A stretch of DNA of 64,000 bases from an uncultured Pseudomonadota bacterium. Lineage in GTDB: Bacteria > Pseudomonadota > Alphaproteobacteria > Rs-D84. The translations under genes were made by a program, and so were the position numbers. Below are positions 7,377 through 47,916 of this stretch, one piece after another (the first letter of the stretch is position 1; each line of letters starts with the position of its first letter). The stretch is from positions 159,211 through 223,210 of the forward strand of contig OOHM01000002.1 in NCBI GenBank assembly GCA_900320405.1. Direction: 5' to 3'. The notes under the pieces were generated by a model. The model saw only the letters and a program-made list of their open reading frames with translations. It had not been told where the DNA came from and made no database searches.

Positions 7377-9131
7377 TTGTCTGTTCGTTTGTTGCCTGAT
7401 TATTTGGTCAATCAAATTGCCGCCGGTGAAGTGGTTGAAAATGGCGCAAGCGTTGTCAAAGAAACGGTCGAAAACGCATTGGATGCGGGTGCGGACCAGA
7501 TTATCATTGATGTTGTCGATGGCGGGCGTACATTGATAAACATTGTTGATAATGGCGGCGGAATGTCGCGTGATGATTTGGAAAAATGCATTCAACGACA
7601 TGCAACATCTAAATTGCCCGATGATAATTTGTTGAATATAAACTTTATGGGTTTCCGGGGCGAGGCATTACCATCAATCGCGTCTGTGTCCGATATGACA
7701 ATCGATACATGTAATGGTGCCGATTCGAACGGTTGGCATTTGGATTGTAATACCGGCGATGTTCGACCGTCTGATTGGCAAAGTGGTACGCGAATTCGCG
7801 TGCAAAATTTATTTGCAAAAACACCGGCGCGATTAAAGTTTTTGCGGGGTGATCGTGCGGAAACGATGTCAATATTGGATGTTGTAAAACGCCTGGCCTT
7901 GGCGCGAACGGATGTCGGTTTTGTTTTGAATAACAAATGGCGATTTCCAAAAAATCAAGATTTGATGGAACGCATAGTTGCCGTTATGGGTGAAGATGTG
8001 CGTGGCCGTATGTTGCCGGTTGATACAGAATCTGGGTCGGCGTCGGGTATGAAATTGTCGGGGTATATTTCCGACCCAACATTGCGGCGCGCATCGTCTG
8101 TGGATCAATTCTTGTTTGTAAATGGCCGGCCGGTCAAAGATAAAGTTTTGGTTGGTGCGTTGCGTGCGGCATATATGGATGTTATGCATGCACGGGAATT
8201 TCCGCTGTGCGCGTTATATTTGAATTTGCCGAACGAAATGGTTGATGTAAATGTTTCGCCCACAAAAACCGAAGTGCATTTTTTAGAACCGAATCACGTG
8301 CGCGCATTTATTATAAAAAGTCTGCGTGAAGTTTTGGCAAAAACAATGGTGCCGAATGCGCCCGTTGCGAATGACGGCAAAATGTATTTTCGCGAATCGT
8401 TTGGTTCAAATACGAACGCGCATATAAATCGGTCGGTGTCGGCGGTGTTTCAACCACGGCCGGTAAACAGTGGATTTTTTACAGAAAATAAAAATCCGGA
8501 CTTTGATAATTCTGTATCGGTGCACGCCGTGCCACGGACGGATACAAATGTGGACGATATTTTTGAAAATCGACCCTTGGGGCGCGTGGTTGGGCAAATT
8601 GCAAATAAATATATATTGGCGGCGACGGCGGACAGTTTGGTTGTTGTTGACCAACACGCCGCGCACGAACGCATAACATATGAAAAAATGCGCAAACACG
8701 AAATAAAATCACAACCTTTATTGACACCGATTGTTGTTCAAATGCGTGCCGAAGATGTTGTGGCAATTTTATCGGTTGCGGATGAAATGCGTGCATCCGG
8801 TTTGGCGGTGGATGCGTTTGGCGATGACGCCATTGCGATTTTTGAAAAACCGGCGGATTGGGATATGAATTGGGCGAATGTTTTACACGATATCGCGGAC
8901 GAGGTTCGTGCATACGGTCATTCTGCACAATTAAATGAAAAATTGCATTTGAAATTGGCAAACCACGCGTGTCATCATTCGGTGCGTGCGGGGCAAAAAT
9001 TAAATTTTGAACAAATGGACGCTTTGTTGCGTGATATTGAACGCACCGAACACGGTGGTGAATGTAATCACGGCCGCCCGGTGTATAAATTTATCCCGTT
9101 GACGGAAATAGATACTTGGTTTGAAAGATAG
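7377..9131 (+). CDS. mutL: DNA mismatch repair protein MutL
   Basis: LPDYLVNQIAAGEVVE (GHKL ATPase N-terminus), a DGGRTLINIVDNGGGM motif and a C-terminal dimerisation/endonuclease region. TTG start at 7377 directly after the greA stop. Confidence 0.9.
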   Translation: MSVRLLPDYLVNQIAAGEVVENGASVVKETVENALDAGADQIIIDVVDGGRTLINIVDNGGGMSRDDLEKCIQRHATSKLPDDNLLNINFMGFRGEALPSIASVSDMTIDTCNGADSNGWHLDCNTGDVRPSDWQSGTRIRVQNLFAKTPARLKFLRGDRAETMSILDVVKRLALARTDVGFVLNNKWRFPKNQDLMERIVAVMGEDVRGRMLPVDTESGSASGMKLSGYISDPTLRRASSVDQFLFVNGRPVKDKVLVGALRAAYMDVMHAREFPLCALYLNLPNEMVDVNVSPTKTEVHFLEPNHVRAFIIKSLREVLAKTMVPNAPVANDGKMYFRESFGSNTNAHINRSVSAVFQPRPVNSGFFTENKNPDFDNSVSVHAVPRTDTNVDDIFENRPLGRVVGQIANKYILAATADSLVVVDQHAAHERITYEKMRKHEIKSQPLLTPIVVQMRAEDVVAILSVADEMRASGLAVDAFGDDAIAIFEKPADWDMNWANVLHDIADEVRAYGHSAQLNEKLHLKLANHACHHSVRAGQKLNFEQMDALLRDIERTEHGGECNHGRPVYKFIPLTEIDTWFER

Positions 9132-9183
9132 GTGTTGGTGGGGATTTGCGTTCGCAACCAATCGCGACGGGGTGATAGTGAAG

Positions 9184-9203
9184 ACGGGCGCGCCCGTTTT
9201 TTT
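9184..9203 (+). terminator. Rho-independent terminator after mutL
   Basis: acgggcgcgcccgt palindrome followed by tttttt. Confidence 0.5.
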
Positions 9204-9308
9204 ATTGCAAAATAAATTCCAGATTATCGCCATCCCGCCACTTTTCCCTTTACTTTTTGGGCTTTTTTTTCTATTCTGAGCGCATAAATAATAAAAAGGA
9301 GAAAACAT

Positions 9309-9623
9309 ATGGAAGAAGTTCAGGTCGTTGATTCTGTCGCAAATTCTGGAAATGTCGCCGCGCAAGGTGGCGGTTGGGGAACCCTGTTCGTGTACTGTTT
9401 GGTTGTATTCGCAATCGTATATTTCCTTATGGTGCGACCAAATAAAAAACGTATGGCCGAATATCAAAAAATGATTGATTCTATTAAGGTTGGTGATCGT
9501 GTTATGGCTGCCGGAATCTATGGCAAAGTAAAGAAAATCGAAAACGATAAAATCGAGATGGAAATTGCCAAAGGCGTTGTTATCGAAGTAAATAAAAACG
9601 CCATCGGTGCGGTTGAAAAATAA
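9309..9623 (+). CDS. yajC: Preprotein translocase subunit YajC
   Basis: 104 aa, one TM helix (LFVYCLVVFAIVYFLMVRPNKKR) and a conserved C-terminal domain. Located upstream of secDF. Confidence 0.88.
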   Translation: MEEVQVVDSVANSGNVAAQGGGWGTLFVYCLVVFAIVYFLMVRPNKKRMAEYQKMIDSIKVGDRVMAAGIYGKVKKIENDKIEMEIAKGVVIEVNKNAIGAVEK

Positions 9624-9638
9624 TCGGGGGTGTATGTT

Positions 9639-11201
9639 ATGTTGAAAAAATTGCTGATTATTTTTGTGGCGGTATTTGGTGTGTTGTTGGCCGTGCCAAC
9701 AATGTTGCCGGGGGCCGCAAAATATTTTCCGTCGTGGATGCATCCAATATCTTTGGGTTTGGATTTAAAGGGTGGTGCACAATTGTTGTTAGAGGTTGAT
9801 ACCGCAACAATGTTCCAAGAAAAATCCGTGCAATTGTATGACGAAGTCCGCAGTGCGATGATTGACCGGTCAAAGGGCGTGATTCGGTTTTCGAACCTGC
9901 GTAATAATGATGGCGTGGTGTCGTTAACCCTGCGTGAAGGCGAAGATATGTCGCGTGCCAAGGGGCGTTTGAAAAGTGTGTTTGGAAACACAGTTGATGT
10001 TTCTACATCGGGGCGGACAATAACGCTGTCTTATTCTGATAAACAACGCGAAGAAATGACCGCCGACGCGTTGGCGCGCAGTATAGAAATTGTGCGTCGT
10101 CGTATCGATGCGCTGGGGACCAAAGAACCGTCTATTCAAAGCCAGGGCGGAAAGTATATCTTGGTGCAATTGCCTGGTGTTGATAATCCCGAACATATTA
10201 AAGAATTGATTGGGCAAACCGCAAAAATGACTTTCCATTTGGTAAATGAAAATGTGACACCGGAACAATTGGCATCTGGGGTCGCGCCCGCGGGAACAGA
10301 ATTTTTGCCGTATATGGATGCGGGGTGGAATAAGATTCCGGTTTATTCGCATGTCGAGGTTTCAGGTGAAAGTTTGAAAGATTCCCAGGCAGACTTTGAC
10401 CAAAACAATATGCCGGTTGTGACAACCGTTTTTGATACGGCGGGGGCGCGTCGGTTTGCGAAACTGACCACAGAACACGTAAACGAACGCTTCGCAATTG
10501 TGTTGGACGGCAAAGTTTTATCGGCGCCAACAATTCGTGAACCGATTCCGGGTGGCCGTGGCCAGATTTCTGGTGGCTTCACTTTACAGGGTGCAAAAGA
10601 TTTGGCCGTTCTGTTGCGCAGTGGCGCGTTGCCGGCGCCGTTGCAGGTTATCGAAGAACGCACCGTCGGTGCCGGTTTGGGTGCCGACACGATTGCCCAA
10701 GGCAAGGTTGGGTCCGCAATTGGTGTGTTGTTGGTGTTGTTATTTATGATTGCGGTATATCGCGCATTTGGTTTAATCGCAGATATTGTATTGTTGGTCA
10801 ATTTGGCGATGATTATCGGTATGTCTGCATTGATGGGTGCAACATTGACATTGCCCGGTATCGCCGGTATCGTGTTGACATTGGGTATGGCGGTGGACGC
10901 GAACATATTACCGTTTGAACGTATACGCGATGAAATGCGTTCGGGTGCAACGCCTTTGCGTGCGGTGGATTCCGGATTTAATCGTTCAATGAAAACCGTT
11001 TTGGACGGTGAATTGACCAATTTGATTTGTGCGTTGATTTTGTTCCAATTTGGTGCAGGTCCAATTCGTGGGTTCGCGGTGACACTGTCCATTGGTGTTA
11101 TGACAACGCTGTTCACATGTTTAATGTTGTCGCGTGTGCTGATTGATTGGTATATGGGCGGCAAAAATAAAAAAATTGGTTATGTAAGAATTAAAAAGTA
11201 A
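9639..11201 (+). CDS. secD: Protein translocase subunit SecD
   Basis: Large periplasmic domain plus C-terminal 6-TM RND-like module. Start taken at MLKKLL (ggggg RBS); the alternative ATG is at 9630. Confidence 0.9.
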   Translation: MLKKLLIIFVAVFGVLLAVPTMLPGAAKYFPSWMHPISLGLDLKGGAQLLLEVDTATMFQEKSVQLYDEVRSAMIDRSKGVIRFSNLRNNDGVVSLTLREGEDMSRAKGRLKSVFGNTVDVSTSGRTITLSYSDKQREEMTADALARSIEIVRRRIDALGTKEPSIQSQGGKYILVQLPGVDNPEHIKELIGQTAKMTFHLVNENVTPEQLASGVAPAGTEFLPYMDAGWNKIPVYSHVEVSGESLKDSQADFDQNNMPVVTTVFDTAGARRFAKLTTEHVNERFAIVLDGKVLSAPTIREPIPGGRGQISGGFTLQGAKDLAVLLRSGALPAPLQVIEERTVGAGLGADTIAQGKVGSAIGVLLVLLFMIAVYRAFGLIADIVLLVNLAMIIGMSALMGATLTLPGIAGIVLTLGMAVDANILPFERIRDEMRSGATPLRAVDSGFNRSMKTVLDGELTNLICALILFQFGAGPIRGFAVTLSIGVMTTLFTCLMLSRVLIDWYMGGKNKKIGYVRIKK

Positions 11202-20683: not shown

Positions 20684-22696
20684 ATGCGCGTATATGTAAA
20701 TATGGAAGACAAACGTTGGAAAAAATATAAAATAGATTTTGAAAAAATCGCCAATGCGACCGTTGGGAAAAAGTATGCTGATGCGGAAGTATCCATTACA
20801 TTGGTTGATGATAAATATATCAAAAAAATCAATAAAAAATATCGCGGTATAAACAAGCCGACAAATGTTTTGTCTTTTGAATTGGGGGACAGTGTTTTGT
20901 TGGGGGATATTTTTATATCAATTGATACCGTTGCCGCCCAGGCAAAAGAAGAGGCTATAACGGTTAATGAACATACCGCGCATATGGTGGTTCATGGTAT
21001 TTTACACCTGTTGGGGTATGACCATATTAAAGATACCGATGCAGAAAAAATGGAAAAGAAAGAAATTTCAATTTTGAAAAAATTGGGATATAAAAACCCC
21101 TATGCGGCGGATTCCGGTGTATGCAGCGATGAATTGTGTTGTCCGGGTGGACACACAATCGGTGCCTTCAAAAGATTTTTTGGGTCTGGATTTGGACGAA
21201 CCGTTTTATATATGTTATGTGGTGCGATTGCATCATTGGGTTTTGCGCCATTTTATATGTGGTGGGCAACCTTTGTTGGTATTTTGGGTGCATATTTGTT
21301 GTCGGTTAACGCTTTGCCGGGACATTCGTGGTTTGGAAAATTCTTTCGCGTGTTCCCGTTCAGTGCAGTATACGCAATGTCTATGTTTTGGTGGGTGTTG
21401 AACAGTATATATGTTGTTCCGGAATTGGCAAATCAGTTTGCCGTGTGGACTGTGCCGGGAATCATAGGTATCGGCATTATCGGTGGAATGATATTTTCGA
21501 TTCCATTTTTGGCAATTTCGGGCGCACGCGCAAATCCGGCGTGCCGGCCGTTTGTTTTCGCCGCAATTTGGACTTTGGTTTTATGGATGCGTGAATGGGT
21601 GTTCACCGGTTTCCCGTGGAATCCGATTTCAAACATTGCAATAGAAAATGTGTATATTGCAAATTCTATGTCATTGTATGGGGCGTTGGGGTTAACATTT
21701 GTGATAACTGGCATAATCGCGTCCGTGGCCGAGGTTATTAAAAATCGACGCAACGGATTAAATTGGTTGGCATTGATAATATTCATTATGTTCGGTTTGG
21801 TCGGTGTATTATATGGTGTGAAAAATATTCAGGTTGCGGGAAATTCCAATGTTGCACGCACCCCGATTGTGCGGATTGTGCAACCGGCGCAAAGTGCAAC
21901 ACAAAAGGCGACGCATTCGCGTGCCGCGGCAATTCAAAATGCAAATTATAACTTACAGGTAATGGCATCTTTGGCGGGTGCGGATGGGGAACACGAATTG
22001 GTCGTGTTTCCGGAAACGGCGTACCCGTTTGTTCTTGTGCCGGGTGATAAAATGTTCTTGTCCCAGGTATTATCTAAACCTATTATCATAGGTTCAAATT
22101 ATTTTTCAGACGAAAATTTATATAATTCTTTGATAATTGCGGATGCCGATGGCACGATTTCCAATGTATACAGTAAATCGCATTTGGTTCCGTTTGGCGA
22201 ATATCGGCCATTTGGAAATTTGATTCCTACGCCCGGTATGTTAACGCCGGGAATGGGACCAGAATTGATAAAAATGAATTTGGCAGGTTCAAAGTTTGTT
22301 TTTGCGCCGGCGATTTGTTACGAGGTTATATTCACCGATTCTTTGATTCCAAATGGAAAAACGCCGGACGCAATCATAAATATTACAAATGATAATTGGT
22401 TTGGAAAAACGCCCGGAACATATCAGCATCTGGATATGGTGCGGCGTTATGCAATTGAATCGGGCGTGCCGATAATTCGTTCAAACTATTCGGGTATCAG
22501 TGCATTCGTATTATCTGATGGAAATATTATTGCAAGTATTCCAATTGGACAACCCGGTGTCATAGACGGGTCTGTTTGGGGTGCACACAAAACAATGTAT
22601 CGTCTTTTGGGTCGTGATGCGTGGATGATAATGTTGTTGATTGTGTCGTGTTTGGCATCTATATGGATGTTCGATGTGTCCCGTCCGCGTGATTAA
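20684..22696 (+). CDS. Fusion ORF: endoribonuclease YbeY (N-terminal ~150 aa) joined in frame to apolipoprotein N-acyltransferase Lnt (TM domain plus C-N hydrolase domain)
   Basis: HGILHLLGYDH Zn-binding motif of YbeY, then a Cys-rich linker (SGVCSDELCCPGGH), then Lnt-like polytopic membrane and nitrilase-superfamily regions (E...K...C triad region: FPETAYP..., ...ICYEVIF...). No stop codon between the two parts. RBS agggggaa before the ATG at 20684. Confidence 0.78.
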   Translation: MRVYVNMEDKRWKKYKIDFEKIANATVGKKYADAEVSITLVDDKYIKKINKKYRGINKPTNVLSFELGDSVLLGDIFISIDTVAAQAKEEAITVNEHTAHMVVHGILHLLGYDHIKDTDAEKMEKKEISILKKLGYKNPYAADSGVCSDELCCPGGHTIGAFKRFFGSGFGRTVLYMLCGAIASLGFAPFYMWWATFVGILGAYLLSVNALPGHSWFGKFFRVFPFSAVYAMSMFWWVLNSIYVVPELANQFAVWTVPGIIGIGIIGGMIFSIPFLAISGARANPACRPFVFAAIWTLVLWMREWVFTGFPWNPISNIAIENVYIANSMSLYGALGLTFVITGIIASVAEVIKNRRNGLNWLALIIFIMFGLVGVLYGVKNIQVAGNSNVARTPIVRIVQPAQSATQKATHSRAAAIQNANYNLQVMASLAGADGEHELVVFPETAYPFVLVPGDKMFLSQVLSKPIIIGSNYFSDENLYNSLIIADADGTISNVYSKSHLVPFGEYRPFGNLIPTPGMLTPGMGPELIKMNLAGSKFVFAPAICYEVIFTDSLIPNGKTPDAIINITNDNWFGKTPGTYQHLDMVRRYAIESGVPIIRSNYSGISAFVLSDGNIIASIPIGQPGVIDGSVWGAHKTMYRLLGRDAWMIMLLIVSCLASIWMFDVSRPRD

Positions 22697-45076: not shown

Positions 45077-46603
45077 ATGAAAAGTTTTACACATATTATT
45101 TTGGGGATTTTATGTGTTTTCTTACCACGCGTATGCGTGGGGTTGGTTGTTTCCGGGGATTATGTTTTTGGCAATGATGCGGATATAAATGAAGAAATTC
45201 ATATTACCGATTCGGGTGTGATAACAAATTACGGCACGTTAAGTGGAAAAATAAAAATTGATTCTGGATTAACGGTCACTTTTCAAAACTTTGGTATTGT
45301 GACATCTGTGTTTGATGTTTCTGGTGGTGCATCAATTGTTCAGAATGTGACATCAATGGATGATTTACACGGTTTAGGAAGTTTGTCGGGCTACATTGTT
45401 CATGTGAATACCAGAAATCCAGACGATACAAAAAACAAAATAGATTTGTCTGCATTTATAGATATGGTTGCCGGTGCAATCAGTGTAGATGTTGAATCGG
45501 GGGCATTTATAATTGACGAAAATGTTCCAGATAATAATATACCAATCAGTGTGAATAACAATACCACTTTTTATATAAATGGTCTGCCGGGCGATTGGTC
45601 AAAACCTTTGGTCAAGGGTATTATTGGGACACCTTTTGTTGAAACACTAAATATTGATCCAATGTATGATGTGACGGTTGATTGGCATGGCCCAGATTTA
45701 TATTTGTTGGTTGTACGGAAAACAAATTATTCTGAAATTATGTCTGATAATAATTTGGGAAATTATTTAGACGATTTGCGTGATAAAAATTCGAATGATA
45801 AATTGTTGAAGGCTTTGGATGGCGCACCAGATAGACAAGCATTGAATAAAATTTTATCAAAATCTGTGCGGACAAAACCAATCAAATTAATGGATGTGCC
45901 GCGGTCAATAAATACTTTCTATGATTCTTTTGCCATTGATGATGTCGCATTCGGATTTATTGCGCGGCCGTTTTATATTGCGTCAAATGATTTTAGTTTT
46001 ATTGGTGGCGCGGCAAATGTGTCTGGAAATGTCGCCAAGAATACCGTTGGTACAATCGGGCTTCATGGTGGAATGTTAAAATATAGTGGTGATTACGATG
46101 ATTATTCGGGCGCGCTGTACGGCGGAAATATTGGTGTTCGATATATGGATGATGATTTTTATTTGCGCACATATGGCACGATATCGTATGCAATATTCAA
46201 AGATATAAACGCGTTTGATGGTGTGCGTATGATTCAAAATGTAAATGGTATCAATGGAATGGGGGTCTTTGATGCGGGGATTGTGTATCGTGTGTTGGAT
46301 GAATTAAAATTGATTCCATTTGTGGGTGCGCGGATTGATTACGCGTCTGTGTTGGATGATACGAAAGTTGATGCGACGGTGCGTGCAGGATTGAACGCCA
46401 ATGTTGATACGGATATGGACGGAAATAAATACAGGTTTGGGGCACGTTTGTTCGGGCAAACGGATGGCGCATTTTATGGCGGTATCTATACCGATATGAT
46501 GTCAACGGCCGATGGTGTCGGCGGTGGTGCGTCGGTCGGCGTATTGTACGATGATATGGGATTATCGTATAAATTAGAATTGAATATAAAATTTGAATTT
46601 TAA
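45077..46603 (+). CDS. Autotransporter-like outer-membrane protein: short passenger plus C-terminal beta-barrel ending ...NIKFEF
   Basis: Signal peptide MKSFTHIILGILCVFLP. Repetitive Gly/Asp-rich beta-strand pattern in the C-terminal ~280 aa with a terminal aromatic-x-Phe. The start at 45077 is chosen over the upstream extension of ORF 44942. Confidence 0.5.
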   Translation: MKSFTHIILGILCVFLPRVCVGLVVSGDYVFGNDADINEEIHITDSGVITNYGTLSGKIKIDSGLTVTFQNFGIVTSVFDVSGGASIVQNVTSMDDLHGLGSLSGYIVHVNTRNPDDTKNKIDLSAFIDMVAGAISVDVESGAFIIDENVPDNNIPISVNNNTTFYINGLPGDWSKPLVKGIIGTPFVETLNIDPMYDVTVDWHGPDLYLLVVRKTNYSEIMSDNNLGNYLDDLRDKNSNDKLLKALDGAPDRQALNKILSKSVRTKPIKLMDVPRSINTFYDSFAIDDVAFGFIARPFYIASNDFSFIGGAANVSGNVAKNTVGTIGLHGGMLKYSGDYDDYSGALYGGNIGVRYMDDDFYLRTYGTISYAIFKDINAFDGVRMIQNVNGINGMGVFDAGIVYRVLDELKLIPFVGARIDYASVLDDTKVDATVRAGLNANVDTDMDGNKYRFGARLFGQTDGAFYGGIYTDMMSTADGVGGGASVGVLYDDMGLSYKLELNIKFEF

Positions 46604-47916
46604 TCTGAAACTATTTTACCACGCAGCGATGCGCGATTCGCGCCGGTAATTTTTATTTTTGCCATTGTTGGCGCGTTTTTGTCCGTCGGTTTTGCGACTA
46701 TGCATTGTTGCATATACGGTGTCCGATAGAGCAGGTGTCGTCCGGTTTTGTCCGAACCTTCACATAAACACATAAATTCTTTATCGACACAAGATTCGTT
46801 AAATTCGCGTTGAATTTCGTTTAATGTGTTATCCAATATGGCAAGTCTTTCGCGTTTTATATTTTCGGGTATTTGATTCGGCATCGTTGCCGCCGCCGTA
46901 TGTGGGCGTGGCGAATATTTGAACGAATAAGAATTTATATAACGCACCCGACGCGCGATATCCAATGTTTGTTCGAAATCTTCGTCTGTTTCGCCCGGAA
47001 ACCCAACGATGAAATCAGACGAGATTTGTATGTCGGGGCGTGCCGCGCGCAATTTATCAATGATTTCCAAATATGCATCCAGACTGTATGGACGGTTCAT
47101 TCGGCGCAAAACATCGGGCGAACCGCTTTGAATTGGCATATTCAGAAATGGCAATAATTTTGTTTCGACCGCAAACATTTGAATAAGATCGTCTGTCATT
47201 TCTGTTGGATAACTGGATGTGAAGCGTATACGGCGTATTTCCGGCATTTTTGCCGTTGCGCGAATCAAATCAGATAAACGATATGTCTTTCCGTTTTCGT
47301 CGGTGTATTTATATCCGTTCACATTTTGCCCAAGGAAACAAATCTCGACTGCGCCGGTTTTTGCGGCCGTGATTGTGTCGCGCACAACATCATCATAAGA
47401 CCGTGAGATTTCGCGACCGCGTGTAAAGGGGACAATACAATATGTACAGCAATGATTGCATCCTTCTTGGATTGGAATATATGATACAACCGGTGCGGTC
47501 GTCATTTGTGGCAGCTCATCAAATTTTTCCAATCCGGTTAAGTCAATGTTTAATAACCGTGTGTCCGGGTCATCCAATATCATCGGTAATTTATGATAAC
47601 TTTGTGGCCCCAAAACAAAGTTCAATTCGGGGATGCGATTGAATGCCTTGGCGCCCGCTTCACGTGCAACACACCCAACAATACCGAAAATGGCATCGGG
47701 CCGTTTCGTGTCGCGTATGCGACCCAATTCGGAAAATACTTTATTGGTTGCCTTTTCACGAACCGAACAAGTGTTCAGTATTATTATGTCCGCGTCCGCA
47801 ATATCTGTGGTTGCCGTCATTCCGCGTGAATCCAACATGGCGGCGATACGCCAACTGTCGTATACATTCATTTGACAACCAAATGTTTTAATAAAGTATT
47901 TTTTTTGTTTTGACAT
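46600..47916 (-). CDS. miaB: tRNA-2-methylthio-N6-dimethylallyladenosine synthase MiaB (radical SAM methylthiotransferase)
   Basis: FGCQMNVYDS (MTTase N-terminus), radical-SAM motif CNHCCTYC, and a TRAM domain at the C-terminus. Confidence 0.92.
   Translation of the reverse strand: MSKQKKYFIKTFGCQMNVYDSWRIAAMLDSRGMTATTDIADADIIILNTCSVREKATNKVFSELGRIRDTKRPDAIFGIVGCVAREAGAKAFNRIPELNFVLGPQSYHKLPMILDDPDTRLLNIDLTGLEKFDELPQMTTAPVVSYIPIQEGCNHCCTYCIVPFTRGREISRSYDDVVRDTITAAKTGAVEICFLGQNVNGYKYTDENGKTYRLSDLIRATAKMPEIRRIRFTSSYPTEMTDDLIQMFAVETKLLPFLNMPIQSGSPDVLRRMNRPYSLDAYLEIIDKLRAARPDIQISSDFIVGFPGETDEDFEQTLDIARRVRYINSYSFKYSPRPHTAAATMPNQIPENIKRERLAILDNTLNEIQREFNESCVDKEFMCLCEGSDKTGRHLLYRTPYMQQCIVAKPTDKNAPTMAKIKITGANRASLRGKIVSD

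Follow-up and report, generated by a model that had tools for sequence, protein, structure and literature searches.

The window, by which we mean the whole 64-kb stretch of DNA analysed, contains one long open reading frame in which the ribosome-maturation factor YbeY appears to be joined to the apolipoprotein N-acyltransferase Lnt. Is this union genuine, do the two halves stay together in the cell, and what would their joining have brought about? We consider it very probable that the gene encodes one bifunctional inner-membrane YbeY-Lnt polypeptide, which most likely came from the collapse of a gene cluster and calls for no new joint function. No description of a YbeY-Lnt fusion was found in the literature searched, and the public records (NCBI, JGI) name the fused proteins only "apolipoprotein N-acyltransferase". 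We rate the protein as a new domain architecture made from known enzymes.

One reading frame and its two enzyme moieties

The frame opens with an ATG at position 20684, where the ortholog alignments begin too, and its 671 codons, including the stop, give a protein of 670 amino acids (Table 1). The preliminary description had proposed an in-frame fusion of ybeY with lnt, consisting of a complete YbeY domain and a full Lnt with its membrane and C-N-hydrolase parts, and the analysis bears this out. The frame is open throughout and conserved in all complete orthologous loci (see below), the metal-site motif HGILHLLGYDH lies at residues 104-114, and Pfam places YbeY at residues 14-134 (E 2.9e-37), LNT_N at 180-342 and CN_hydrolase at 436-627. 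Both moieties are full length and not fragments, because their alignments with the E. coli proteins run nearly from end to end: residues 18-153 (of 155) of E. coli YbeY are covered, and the Lnt part aligns from residue 7 of E. coli Lnt onward. Around the gene, promoter-like sites (11, with 8.8 expected) and terminator-like sites (3, with 4.1 expected) occur at chance level, and Rfam and tRNA scans of the 64-kb window returned only two tRNAs, both distant from the fusion gene.

Table 1. Features of the fusion gene and its former neighbour, in window positions
Feature	Position	Strand	Basis
CDS, YbeY-Lnt fusion protein (670 aa + stop)	20684..22696	+	ORF, Pfam, NCBIfam; frame unbroken in 79/79 complete loci
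Shine-Dalgarno-like AAGGGGGAA	20671..20679	+	read from sequence; G-run ends 6 nt before ATG
YbeY domain, aa 1-143, predicted cytoplasmic	20684..21112	+	PF02130, TIGR00043, E. coli alignment, Foldseek
Zn-binding H-x3-H-x5-H motif (H104, H108, H114)	20993..21025	+	invariant in aligned fused proteins
Inter-domain spacer, aa 144-165	21113..21178	+	low pLDDT; ends in basic amphipathic helix
Cysteine motif C147-x4-C152-C153-P-G	21122..21148	+	crown-group conservation
Lnt membrane domain, TM helices 1-7, aa 166-386	21179..21841	+	Pfam LNT_N, AF2 model
Periplasmic nitrilase-like (CN-hydrolase) domain of Lnt, aa 387-643	21842..22612	+	PF00795, TIGR00546
Lnt catalytic codons	E444 22013-22015, K498 22175-22177, C545 22316-22318; also E506	+	E. 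coli Lnt alignment
TM helix 8, short basic cytoplasmic tail and stop codon	22613..22696	+	AF2 helix 644-666; tail RPRD
miaB, former operon neighbour (context only), 24 kb away	46600..47916	-	tblastn with E. coli MiaB, E 4.5e-107

The YbeY part scores well above the cutoffs of both the Pfam family (PF02130, 127.9 bits vs. 25) and the YbeY equivalog (TIGR00043, 136 bits vs. 45). Its AF2 model, with a pLDDT of about 77-90 over the YbeY region, has the YbeY fold (Foldseek TM 0.80-0.82 to 1XM5). The histidines H104, H108 and H114 align with H114, H118 and H124 of E. coli YbeY and are invariant in two alignments, one of 98 and one of 19 fused proteins. Also invariant are N50, R54, T60, N61 and D75, the equivalents of E. 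coli N55, R59, T65, N66 and D85, and S37, which takes the place of E. coli T42. The position of E. coli R44, a residue implicated in uS11 binding, differs and is occupied by Thr39. YbeY is the most conserved segment of the fusion, with a mean identity of 68% and a dN/dS of 0.12-0.20. Judged from its sequence, the YbeY moiety would be enzymatically active, be it in 16S 3'-end maturation or in the formation of isoaspartate in uS11; no uS11 gene lies within the window or the fetched loci.

The Lnt part likewise exceeds the cutoffs of the lnt equivalog (TIGR00546, 209.4 bits vs. 132.9), LNT_N (58.9 vs. 27.1) and CN_hydrolase (75.1 vs. 23.2). Residues E444, K498, E506 and C545 correspond to E267, K335, E343 and C387 of E. 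coli Lnt, whose Glu-Lys-Cys catalytic triad was defined previously (PMC5500888). All four are invariant in the aligned fused proteins, as is the FPWNP motif in the membrane domain. The AF2 model resembles the Lnt structures 5N6H, 5VRG and 8B0K (Foldseek TM 0.72-0.79) and contains eight hydrophobic helices (residues 169-184, 193-210, 216-244, 246-271, 288-308, 329-353, 358-386 and 644-666), with the nitrilase-like domain between the seventh and the eighth, while lysines and arginines are confined to the predicted cytoplasmic loops. Both termini of E. coli Lnt are cytoplasmic (PMC5500888), and a Lnt-like fold and topology with both Lnt termini in the cytoplasm is predicted here as well. Because the N-terminus of Lnt would face the cytoplasm, YbeY would remain cytoplasmic, tethered at the inner membrane. 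The conserved residues suggest that the Lnt moiety is active, that is, that it would N-acylate diacylglyceryl-cysteine apolipoproteins.

Conservation and origin of the fused gene

Other GTDB species contributed 79 complete loci, from Candidatus Enterousia (order Rs-D84) and related alphaproteobacterial MAGs of gut, rumen and termite, and in all 79 the same unbroken frame appears as one HSP in one frame. Genomes of Enterousia and Rs-D84 are smaller than about 1 Mb (PMC12306168); the L078 fusion locus lies on a closed chromosome of 958,618 bp (0.96 Mb). ENA, NCBI, JGI and Logan together yielded over 200 distinct fused sequences, with representatives as low as 33% in identity, and nearly all of the best 120 cluster representatives (99-55% identity) are about 670 amino acids long and carry all three Pfam domains. 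The dN/dS of both halves (0.06-0.20) indicates purifying selection. The fusion was to be doubted if the junction contained a sequencing error or if orthologs had a stop codon there; the junction is open in all complete orthologs, and neither objection holds. Roughly 80 related gut bacteria with small genomes share the frame, which makes the fusion a genuine, inherited trait and not a sequencing error; recurrence at 79 of 79 loci lies far outside what chance would produce. Apparent matches to a stand-alone YbeY proved to be truncated fusions, and tblastn searches with each half returned no second copy of ybeY or lnt in the 64-kb window.

The gene order in E. coli is miaB-ybeZ-ybeY-ybeX-lnt, and an operon with ybeZ, ybeY, ybeX and lnt has been described (10.1101/2023.03.20.533420). 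The earlier remark that the middle gene is missing here was confirmed and extends to the relatives: searches for homologs of YbeX (CorC) and YbeZ (PhoH) drew a blank both in the 64-kb window and in the 10-kb flanks of the gene at 80 related loci. These flanks contained no miaB either. In two deep-branching fused relatives (L084 and L086), miaB lies directly against the fusion, overlapping its start, and this suggests a collapse of the miaB-ybeZ-ybeY-ybeX-lnt cluster. We infer that the fusion most likely arose by this deletion route during genome reduction. The ancestral cluster would have lost ybeX (and ybeZ), and the loss of the ybeY stop codon, together with that of ybeX and ybeZ, would have joined ybeY to lnt. 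The fusion would have been retained since, with both halves needed and lnt left without start signals of its own.

Five unfused Lnt representatives nest within the well-supported fused clade (bootstrap 97%). The fused gene must therefore have split at least once or have formed more than once, and some relatives appear to have become unfused again. Upstream of the nearest unfused Lnt (L082 and L083) lies a gene that was considered as a degenerate YbeY and rejected, as it has neither a Pfam match nor similarity in hhalign. The most distant fused protein (P0135), for which an independent origin was considered and may or may not apply, is without close kin; its nearest relatives are all members of the fused family, and its position in the tree is weakly supported (bootstrap 5-31%).

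The spacer and alternative readings of the locus

In the reading we prefer, the Lnt moiety, with its eight TM helices and periplasmic nitrilase-like domain, would N-acylate apolipoproteins, and a full-length, Zn-dependent YbeY would be held at the cytoplasmic face of the membrane by a short flexible spacer. The tethered YbeY would keep its normal role in the maturation of the small subunit, which one view describes as 16S rRNA 3'-end processing and quality control, and another (a 2026 preprint) as isoaspartate formation on the ribosomal protein uS11. No new joint function needs to be assumed.

The spacer between YbeY and Lnt comprises about 22 residues, three of them cysteines (SGVCSDELCCPGGH, residues 144-157). 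It is probably flexible, given the pLDDT of 47-64 over residues 141-160 in the AF2 model, in which a helix is predicted at 156-167. With a dN/dS of 0.25-0.78, against 0.06-0.20 across both domains, the spacer evolves fast. The junction segment that includes it (residues 141-172) has 5-43 residues in a set of 202 fused proteins, with only 5-8 in deep-branching fused orthologs. In the crown group C153 never varies, conservation of C147, C152, P154 and G155 is 90% or higher, and in one member of the family (L034) the motif has expanded into a metallothionein-like run; spacers of deep-branching fused orthologs are without any cysteine. The cysteine-rich linker of the preliminary description is thus present in the window, but it is derived in the crown group and not a property of the fusion as such.

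The near-invariant cysteine triad of the crown group is unaccounted for by a purely neutral deletion model. Together with the metallothionein-like run, the persistence of the fusion across deep divergence, and the synteny of ybeY and lnt across Proteobacteria, for which the reasons are unexplained, it may be taken to indicate an adaptive coupling of the Rosetta stone kind. The tether would then link small-subunit maturation or quality control to the maturation of envelope lipoproteins, with the three-cysteine spacer sensing metal or redox state and adjusting YbeY accordingly. We nevertheless regard this explanation as unlikely. Deep-branching fused orthologs do without spacer cysteines, and no cysteine or histidine position elsewhere in the protein covaries strongly with the motif (weak associations only, best phi 0.42). 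Persistence is also what a neutral ratchet predicts, because fission needs a new stop, ribosome binding site and start, and some relatives seem to be unfused again. Less probable still is the more general proposition that YbeY ordinarily acts at the inner membrane or is controlled from there, coupling 30S and uS11 maturation to the biogenesis of envelope lipoproteins, and that the three-cysteine spacer gates YbeY by sensing a metal or the redox state.

A different possibility is that the one frame gives rise to two proteins, through an internal start for Lnt or proteolysis in the spacer, and that no tethered YbeY exists in vivo. The flexible spacer, modelled at low confidence, would suit such processing, and the window has two in-frame candidate start codons, TTG at 151 and ATG at 177. 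The latter begins the stretch MLCGAIASLGF (residues 177-187), which had been proposed as a cryptic start for a separate Lnt; this proposal did not survive the comparison with the orthologs, where that methionine is not conserved and no conserved ribosome binding site is found. We scanned 80 sequences (the window and 79 orthologs) from NPY to TM1 for in-frame ATG, GTG and TTG codons and for Shine-Dalgarno-like words. Three orthologs have none of these codons between the end of YbeY and TM1, many have candidate starts only inside TM1, and a Shine-Dalgarno-like word, even one of four nucleotides, precedes a candidate in only 15 of the 80. The junction shows no deficit of synonymous variation (relative entropy 0.79-1.12 vs. 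a gene mean of 0.88, with few informative codons in 155-178), which argues against an element embedded there. Moreover, an internal start would still leave YbeY translated through into Lnt, and the junction segments of 5-8 residues in deep-branching orthologs leave little room for a processing site. We therefore consider two separate products improbable and infer that a single stable polypeptide is present in vivo.

That YbeY is enzymatically dead and a mere cytoplasmic appendage of Lnt might be read from the threonine in place of E. coli R44, but this is very improbable for the most conserved segment of the protein, in which the metal ligands and the equivalents of five further E. coli residues are invariant. 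Finally, single read-through junctions in MAGs can be errors, but that prior suspicion is all that speaks for an artefact or pseudogene, in which a lost stop or a frameshift in one assembly falsely joins two genes, and the recurrence of the identical architecture across 79 independent assemblies of species-level genomes and over 200 distinct proteins, with both halves under purifying selection, makes it hardly credible.

Implications and comparison with known systems

The fusion is a natural experiment on YbeY, a nearly universal protein whose role, as endoribonuclease or as uS11 isoaspartate-forming enzyme, is disputed. An entire clade appears to use membrane-anchored YbeY only, in some members with a spacer as short as 5-8 residues. 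Tethering limits the substrates within reach of YbeY: free uS11, being small and diffusible, is easy to fit to this arrangement, and whole ribosomes are harder. The fusion is also the first physical link of ybeY to lnt, whose shared operon is unexplained, and it provides an example of how operon collapse in genome reduction may create stable multi-enzyme membrane proteins. Because the annotation reads Lnt only, Rs-D84 would score as lacking YbeY in surveys based on names.

Compared with the ybeZ-ybeY-ybeX-lnt cluster of E. coli, the fusion keeps both enzymes and their 5'-to-3' order, with catalytic residues and folds conserved. However, YbeY (155 aa) and Lnt (512 aa) are separate proteins in E. 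coli, whereas here they are fused via a 22-residue spacer, and ybeX and ybeZ, which lie beside ybeY in E. coli, are absent from the neighbourhood, with miaB 24 kb away. More generally, the typical YbeY is a stand-alone soluble protein of about 150 residues, whereas in the window and its 79 orthologs it is joined in frame to Lnt. Lnt is naturally joined to the product of an adjacent gene in Ppm1 (Rv2051c) of Mycobacterium tuberculosis as well, in which a Lnt-like domain is fused to polyprenol-monophosphomannose synthase; there the partner is attached at the other end of Lnt and is an enzyme of a membrane pathway, not a ribosome-maturation factor. Among the proteins collected here, P0152 (816 aa) is a Lnt with a C-terminal APH/EcKL kinase-like domain. 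Like the fusion, it illustrates that the termini of Lnt can carry extra cytoplasmic domains, but the addition is at the C-terminus, and both partner and lineage are unrelated. As for YbeY, the plant chloroplast protein AtYbeY carries a C-terminal HAD-like hydrolase domain (10.64898/2026.08.26.747336). Although that partner is soluble, provides no membrane anchor and belongs to a eukaryotic organelle lineage, in AtYbeY as in the YbeY-Lnt fusion a second enzyme domain naturally extends YbeY at its C-terminus.

Composition of the ybeY-lnt frame

The N-terminal part of the frame aligns with E. coli YbeY, a protein of solved structure, as far as residue 153 of 155, and the rest aligns with E. coli Lnt, also of solved structure, starting at Lnt residue 7. 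Because these alignments run nearly end to end, the frame comprises a full YbeY, a spacer and a full Lnt. The NCBIfam equivalog cutoffs of TIGR00043 (YbeY) and TIGR00546 (Lnt) are both well exceeded, and the motifs that the preliminary description quoted from this frame were all found, each where it had placed them. The Shine-Dalgarno-like word AAGGGGGAA precedes the ATG, its G-run stopping 6 nt upstream.

Features of the fused gene and protein, and of the gene neighbourhoods discussed in the text (window positions unless a locus from another genome, L0xx, is named)
Feature	Position	Strand	Remark
ybeY-lnt fusion CDS	20684..22696	+	one open frame, 670 codons + stop
Full YbeY	aa 1-143		E. coli YbeY alignment
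YbeY domain	aa 14-134		Pfam, E 2.9e-37
Spacer	aa 144-165		~22 residues, between YbeY and Lnt
LNT_N domain	aa 180-342		Pfam
CN_hydrolase domain	aa 436-627		Pfam
ORF, 402 aa	17316-18524	+	C-terminal end ...IFYF
ORF, 237 aa	18598-19311	+	C-terminal end ...NILF
RHH_4 gene, 72 aa	22700-22918	-	ribbon-helix-helix
miaB	46600..47916	-	24 kb from ybeY-lnt, opposite strand
miaB abutting fusion	L084 4664-6004; L086 3769-5010
CRISPR-Cas loci	L082 5195-9080; L083 5106-8991; L088 2623-6763		Cas2 also in L082 and L083

The Zn ligands H104, H108 and H114 never vary in two alignments, one of 19 and one of 98 fused proteins. The same is true of N50, R54, T60, N61 and D75, which correspond to N55, R59, T65, N66 and D85 of E. 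coli YbeY, and of E444, K498, E506 and C545 in the Lnt part, the counterparts of E267, K335, E343 and C387, which form the catalytic set of E. coli Lnt (PMC5500888). The dN/dS ratios between the window gene and five orthologs (Nei-Gojobori) are 0.12-0.20 for YbeY, 0.06-0.17 for the two Lnt segments and 0.25-0.78 for the spacer; conservation is highest in YbeY, at a mean identity of 68% to the window sequence. The mean pLDDT of an AlphaFold2 model based on 98 sequences is 83.8, and residues 142-160 are the model's sole long low-confidence stretch beyond the active-site loops. Foldseek searches with the model returned the Lnt proteins of E. coli and P. aeruginosa (TM 0.72-0.79) and E. coli YbeY (TM 0.80-0.82). 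By every sequence and fold test of family membership both moieties belong to their families; the single family feature absent from the fused YbeY is its usual stand-alone soluble nature.

Distribution of the fusion, and one protein or two

When 5.8 billion clustered proteins were searched, the 120 best representatives were 99-55% identical to the fusion protein, nearly all of them about 670 aa long with all three Pfam domains. An exhaustive search of 50%-identity representatives returned more fused proteins at 53% to 33% identity (P0121-P0124, P0126, P0128, P0135 and P0138), their architecture confirmed in those scanned with Pfam; ordinary Lnt proteins of 480-540 aa ranked below them. A GTDB scan with one genome per species gave 80 loci, 79 of them not interrupted by a contig end, and all 79 show one tblastn HSP in one frame with the ORF open through the junction. 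The possibility of a sequencing or assembly error, raised in the preliminary description, is thereby removed: the YbeY-Lnt fusion is real, ancient and widespread within one host-associated clade. Short matches considered as candidates for a stand-alone YbeY all continue into the spacer or TM1 and are truncated or chimeric fragments; one of them (P0143) is on a 751-bp contig.

The carriers are labelled Candidatus Enterousia, unclassified Alphaproteobacteria or "Rickettsiales" MAGs, from sources that include rumen, faeces and the guts of chicken, horse and termite. Enterousia is a member of Rs-D84, an uncultured order with genomes of about 0.75-1.0 Mb (PMC12306168); one fused locus (L078) is on a closed chromosome of 958,618 bp. 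The fused proteins are misannotated in public databases: the NCBI and JGI product name is "apolipoprotein N-acyltransferase" only (P0011, P0018, P0032, P0135, P0138 and others). With the YbeY half invisible in product names, name-based surveys of gene presence could score YbeY as absent from Rs-D84.

An alternative explanation, that an internal start at codon 177 yields a separate Lnt, is not supported: this methionine is not conserved among the orthologs. We scanned the region from the C-terminal NPY of YbeY to TM1 in 80 sequences (the window and 79 orthologs). Three of them have no in-frame ATG, GTG or TTG between NPY and TM1, in many the candidate starts are confined to TM1, and only 15 of the 80 have a Shine-Dalgarno-like word, even of 4 nt, upstream of a candidate start. 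No embedded nucleotide signal is visible at the junction, where the relative synonymous-codon entropy is 0.79-1.12 against 0.88 ± 0.23 gene-wide, with few informative sites in codons 155-178. No ortholog has a stop after YbeY, so free YbeY is not obtainable by simple termination. In the alignment of 202 distinct fused proteins, the junction segment is just 5-8 residues long in some deep-branching members (e.g., P0123, P0128 and L068), which would leave little room for a processing site.

Gene neighbourhood and origin

The E. coli operon runs miaB-ybeZ-ybeY-ybeX-lnt (10.1101/2023.03.20.533420). The loss of the middle gene from this place, as the preliminary description proposed, is supported: neither YbeX nor YbeZ has a homolog anywhere within the 64-kb window, and in the 80 loci the 10-kb flanks of the fusion contain none of ybeX, ybeZ and miaB. 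Two deep-branching fused lineages, P0135 (L084) and P0126 (L086), have miaB directly upstream of the fusion, overlapping its start by 4-10 nt. This gene order suggests that the overlap is a relic of the miaB-ybeZ-ybeY-ybeX-lnt cluster: ybeZ and ybeX would have been deleted and ybeY joined to lnt, leaving miaB beside the fusion, and in Enterousia the cluster would have dispersed later. A neutral origin of the fusion is plausible.

In a neighbour-joining tree of the Lnt part (100 bootstraps), the crown fused clade has 100% support. A larger clade (97%) unites the crown with the fused P0128 and P0126 and five unfused Lnt representatives, with which P0126 groups (97%). The unfused proteins inside this clade therefore imply a history with either repeated fusion or one or more secondary fissions. 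The unfused relatives have lnt among other neighbours, and ybeY is not upstream of it. P0135 has only fused family members as its nearest relatives, and its placement in the tree is poorly supported.

The nearest unfused lnt genes ('Rickettsiales bacterium' MAGs) adjoin a type II CRISPR-Cas locus encoding Cas9 (990-1083 aa) and Cas1. In the window, two adjacent ORFs before the fusion have signal-peptide-like N-termini and aromatic C-terminal ends typical of outer-membrane beta-barrels, with no Pfam match. The RHH_4 gene begins 4 nt past the fusion stop and is followed, up to 25501, by ORFs of 149, 168 and 305 aa (-) and 274 aa (+), these four without Pfam match. Almost all 2-kb bins of window 1-64000 have positive GC skew (cumulative rise to 4.4) and most long ORFs are on the forward strand, as would fit a position of the whole window on the leading strand of one replichore.

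Topology, spacer and proposed working

E. coli Lnt crosses the membrane with eight TM helices and keeps both termini in the cytoplasm (PMC5500888). In the model of the fusion the nitrilase-like domain is inserted between the seventh and eighth of eight hydrophobic helices, and Lys and Arg are confined to predicted cytoplasmic loops, including a basic helix (FKRFFGSGFGR) directly before TM1. From these observations, the YbeY domain is predicted to be cytoplasmic, on the side of its substrates, and anchored at the membrane surface.

The spacer motif of the crown group is C147-x4-C152-C153-P-G, in which C153 never varies and conservation is 90% or more at C147, C152, P154 and G155; exactly three spacer cysteines occur in 152 of 202 distinct fused proteins. 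Since the spacer is short and cysteine-free in deep-branching fused proteins, and in L034 (fused gene ~8429-10456) the motif is enlarged to a metallothionein-like run (CGCGCVNCDCKNCACHHCPG), the triad is a later, lineage-specific elaboration that the fusion did not need. No strong covariation of Cys or His elsewhere with the motif was found. For a triad kept within a fast-evolving spacer, the hypothesis that suggests itself is a small metal- or redox-binding site.

The reading best supported by the sequences is a bifunctional inner-membrane protein, whose two active sites, one on either side of the membrane, would each do their ordinary job. Expression at 1:1 would be an unlikely burden because both enzymes are presumably low-abundance housekeeping proteins. 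With the start signals of lnt lost, any frame-breaking mutation would abolish Lnt; this, together with purifying selection on both halves, would leave the fusion frozen, and its persistence needs no new joint function. According to a 2026 preprint, YbeY is a Zn-dependent enzyme: it turns Asn119 of the ribosomal protein uS11 into isoaspartate, and with free uS11 it makes a stable complex (10.64898/2026.08.26.747336). In the fused YbeY the residues implicated there do not vary. Such a small diffusible protein substrate is easily reconciled with a membrane-tethered YbeY; for whole 30S or 70S particles this is harder, though very small cells could still permit it.

The fusion is built from two well-known enzymes; the literature searched holds no description of the architecture, and a full-text search found no mention of the fusion. 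Another terminal fusion of Lnt is the mycobacterial Ppm1. A further one, P0152, is an 816-aa protein from the search of representatives in which Lnt is joined to a C-terminal APH/EcKL kinase-like domain, a combination that also looks undescribed. Plant YbeY carries a HAD-like domain (10.64898/2026.08.26.747336).
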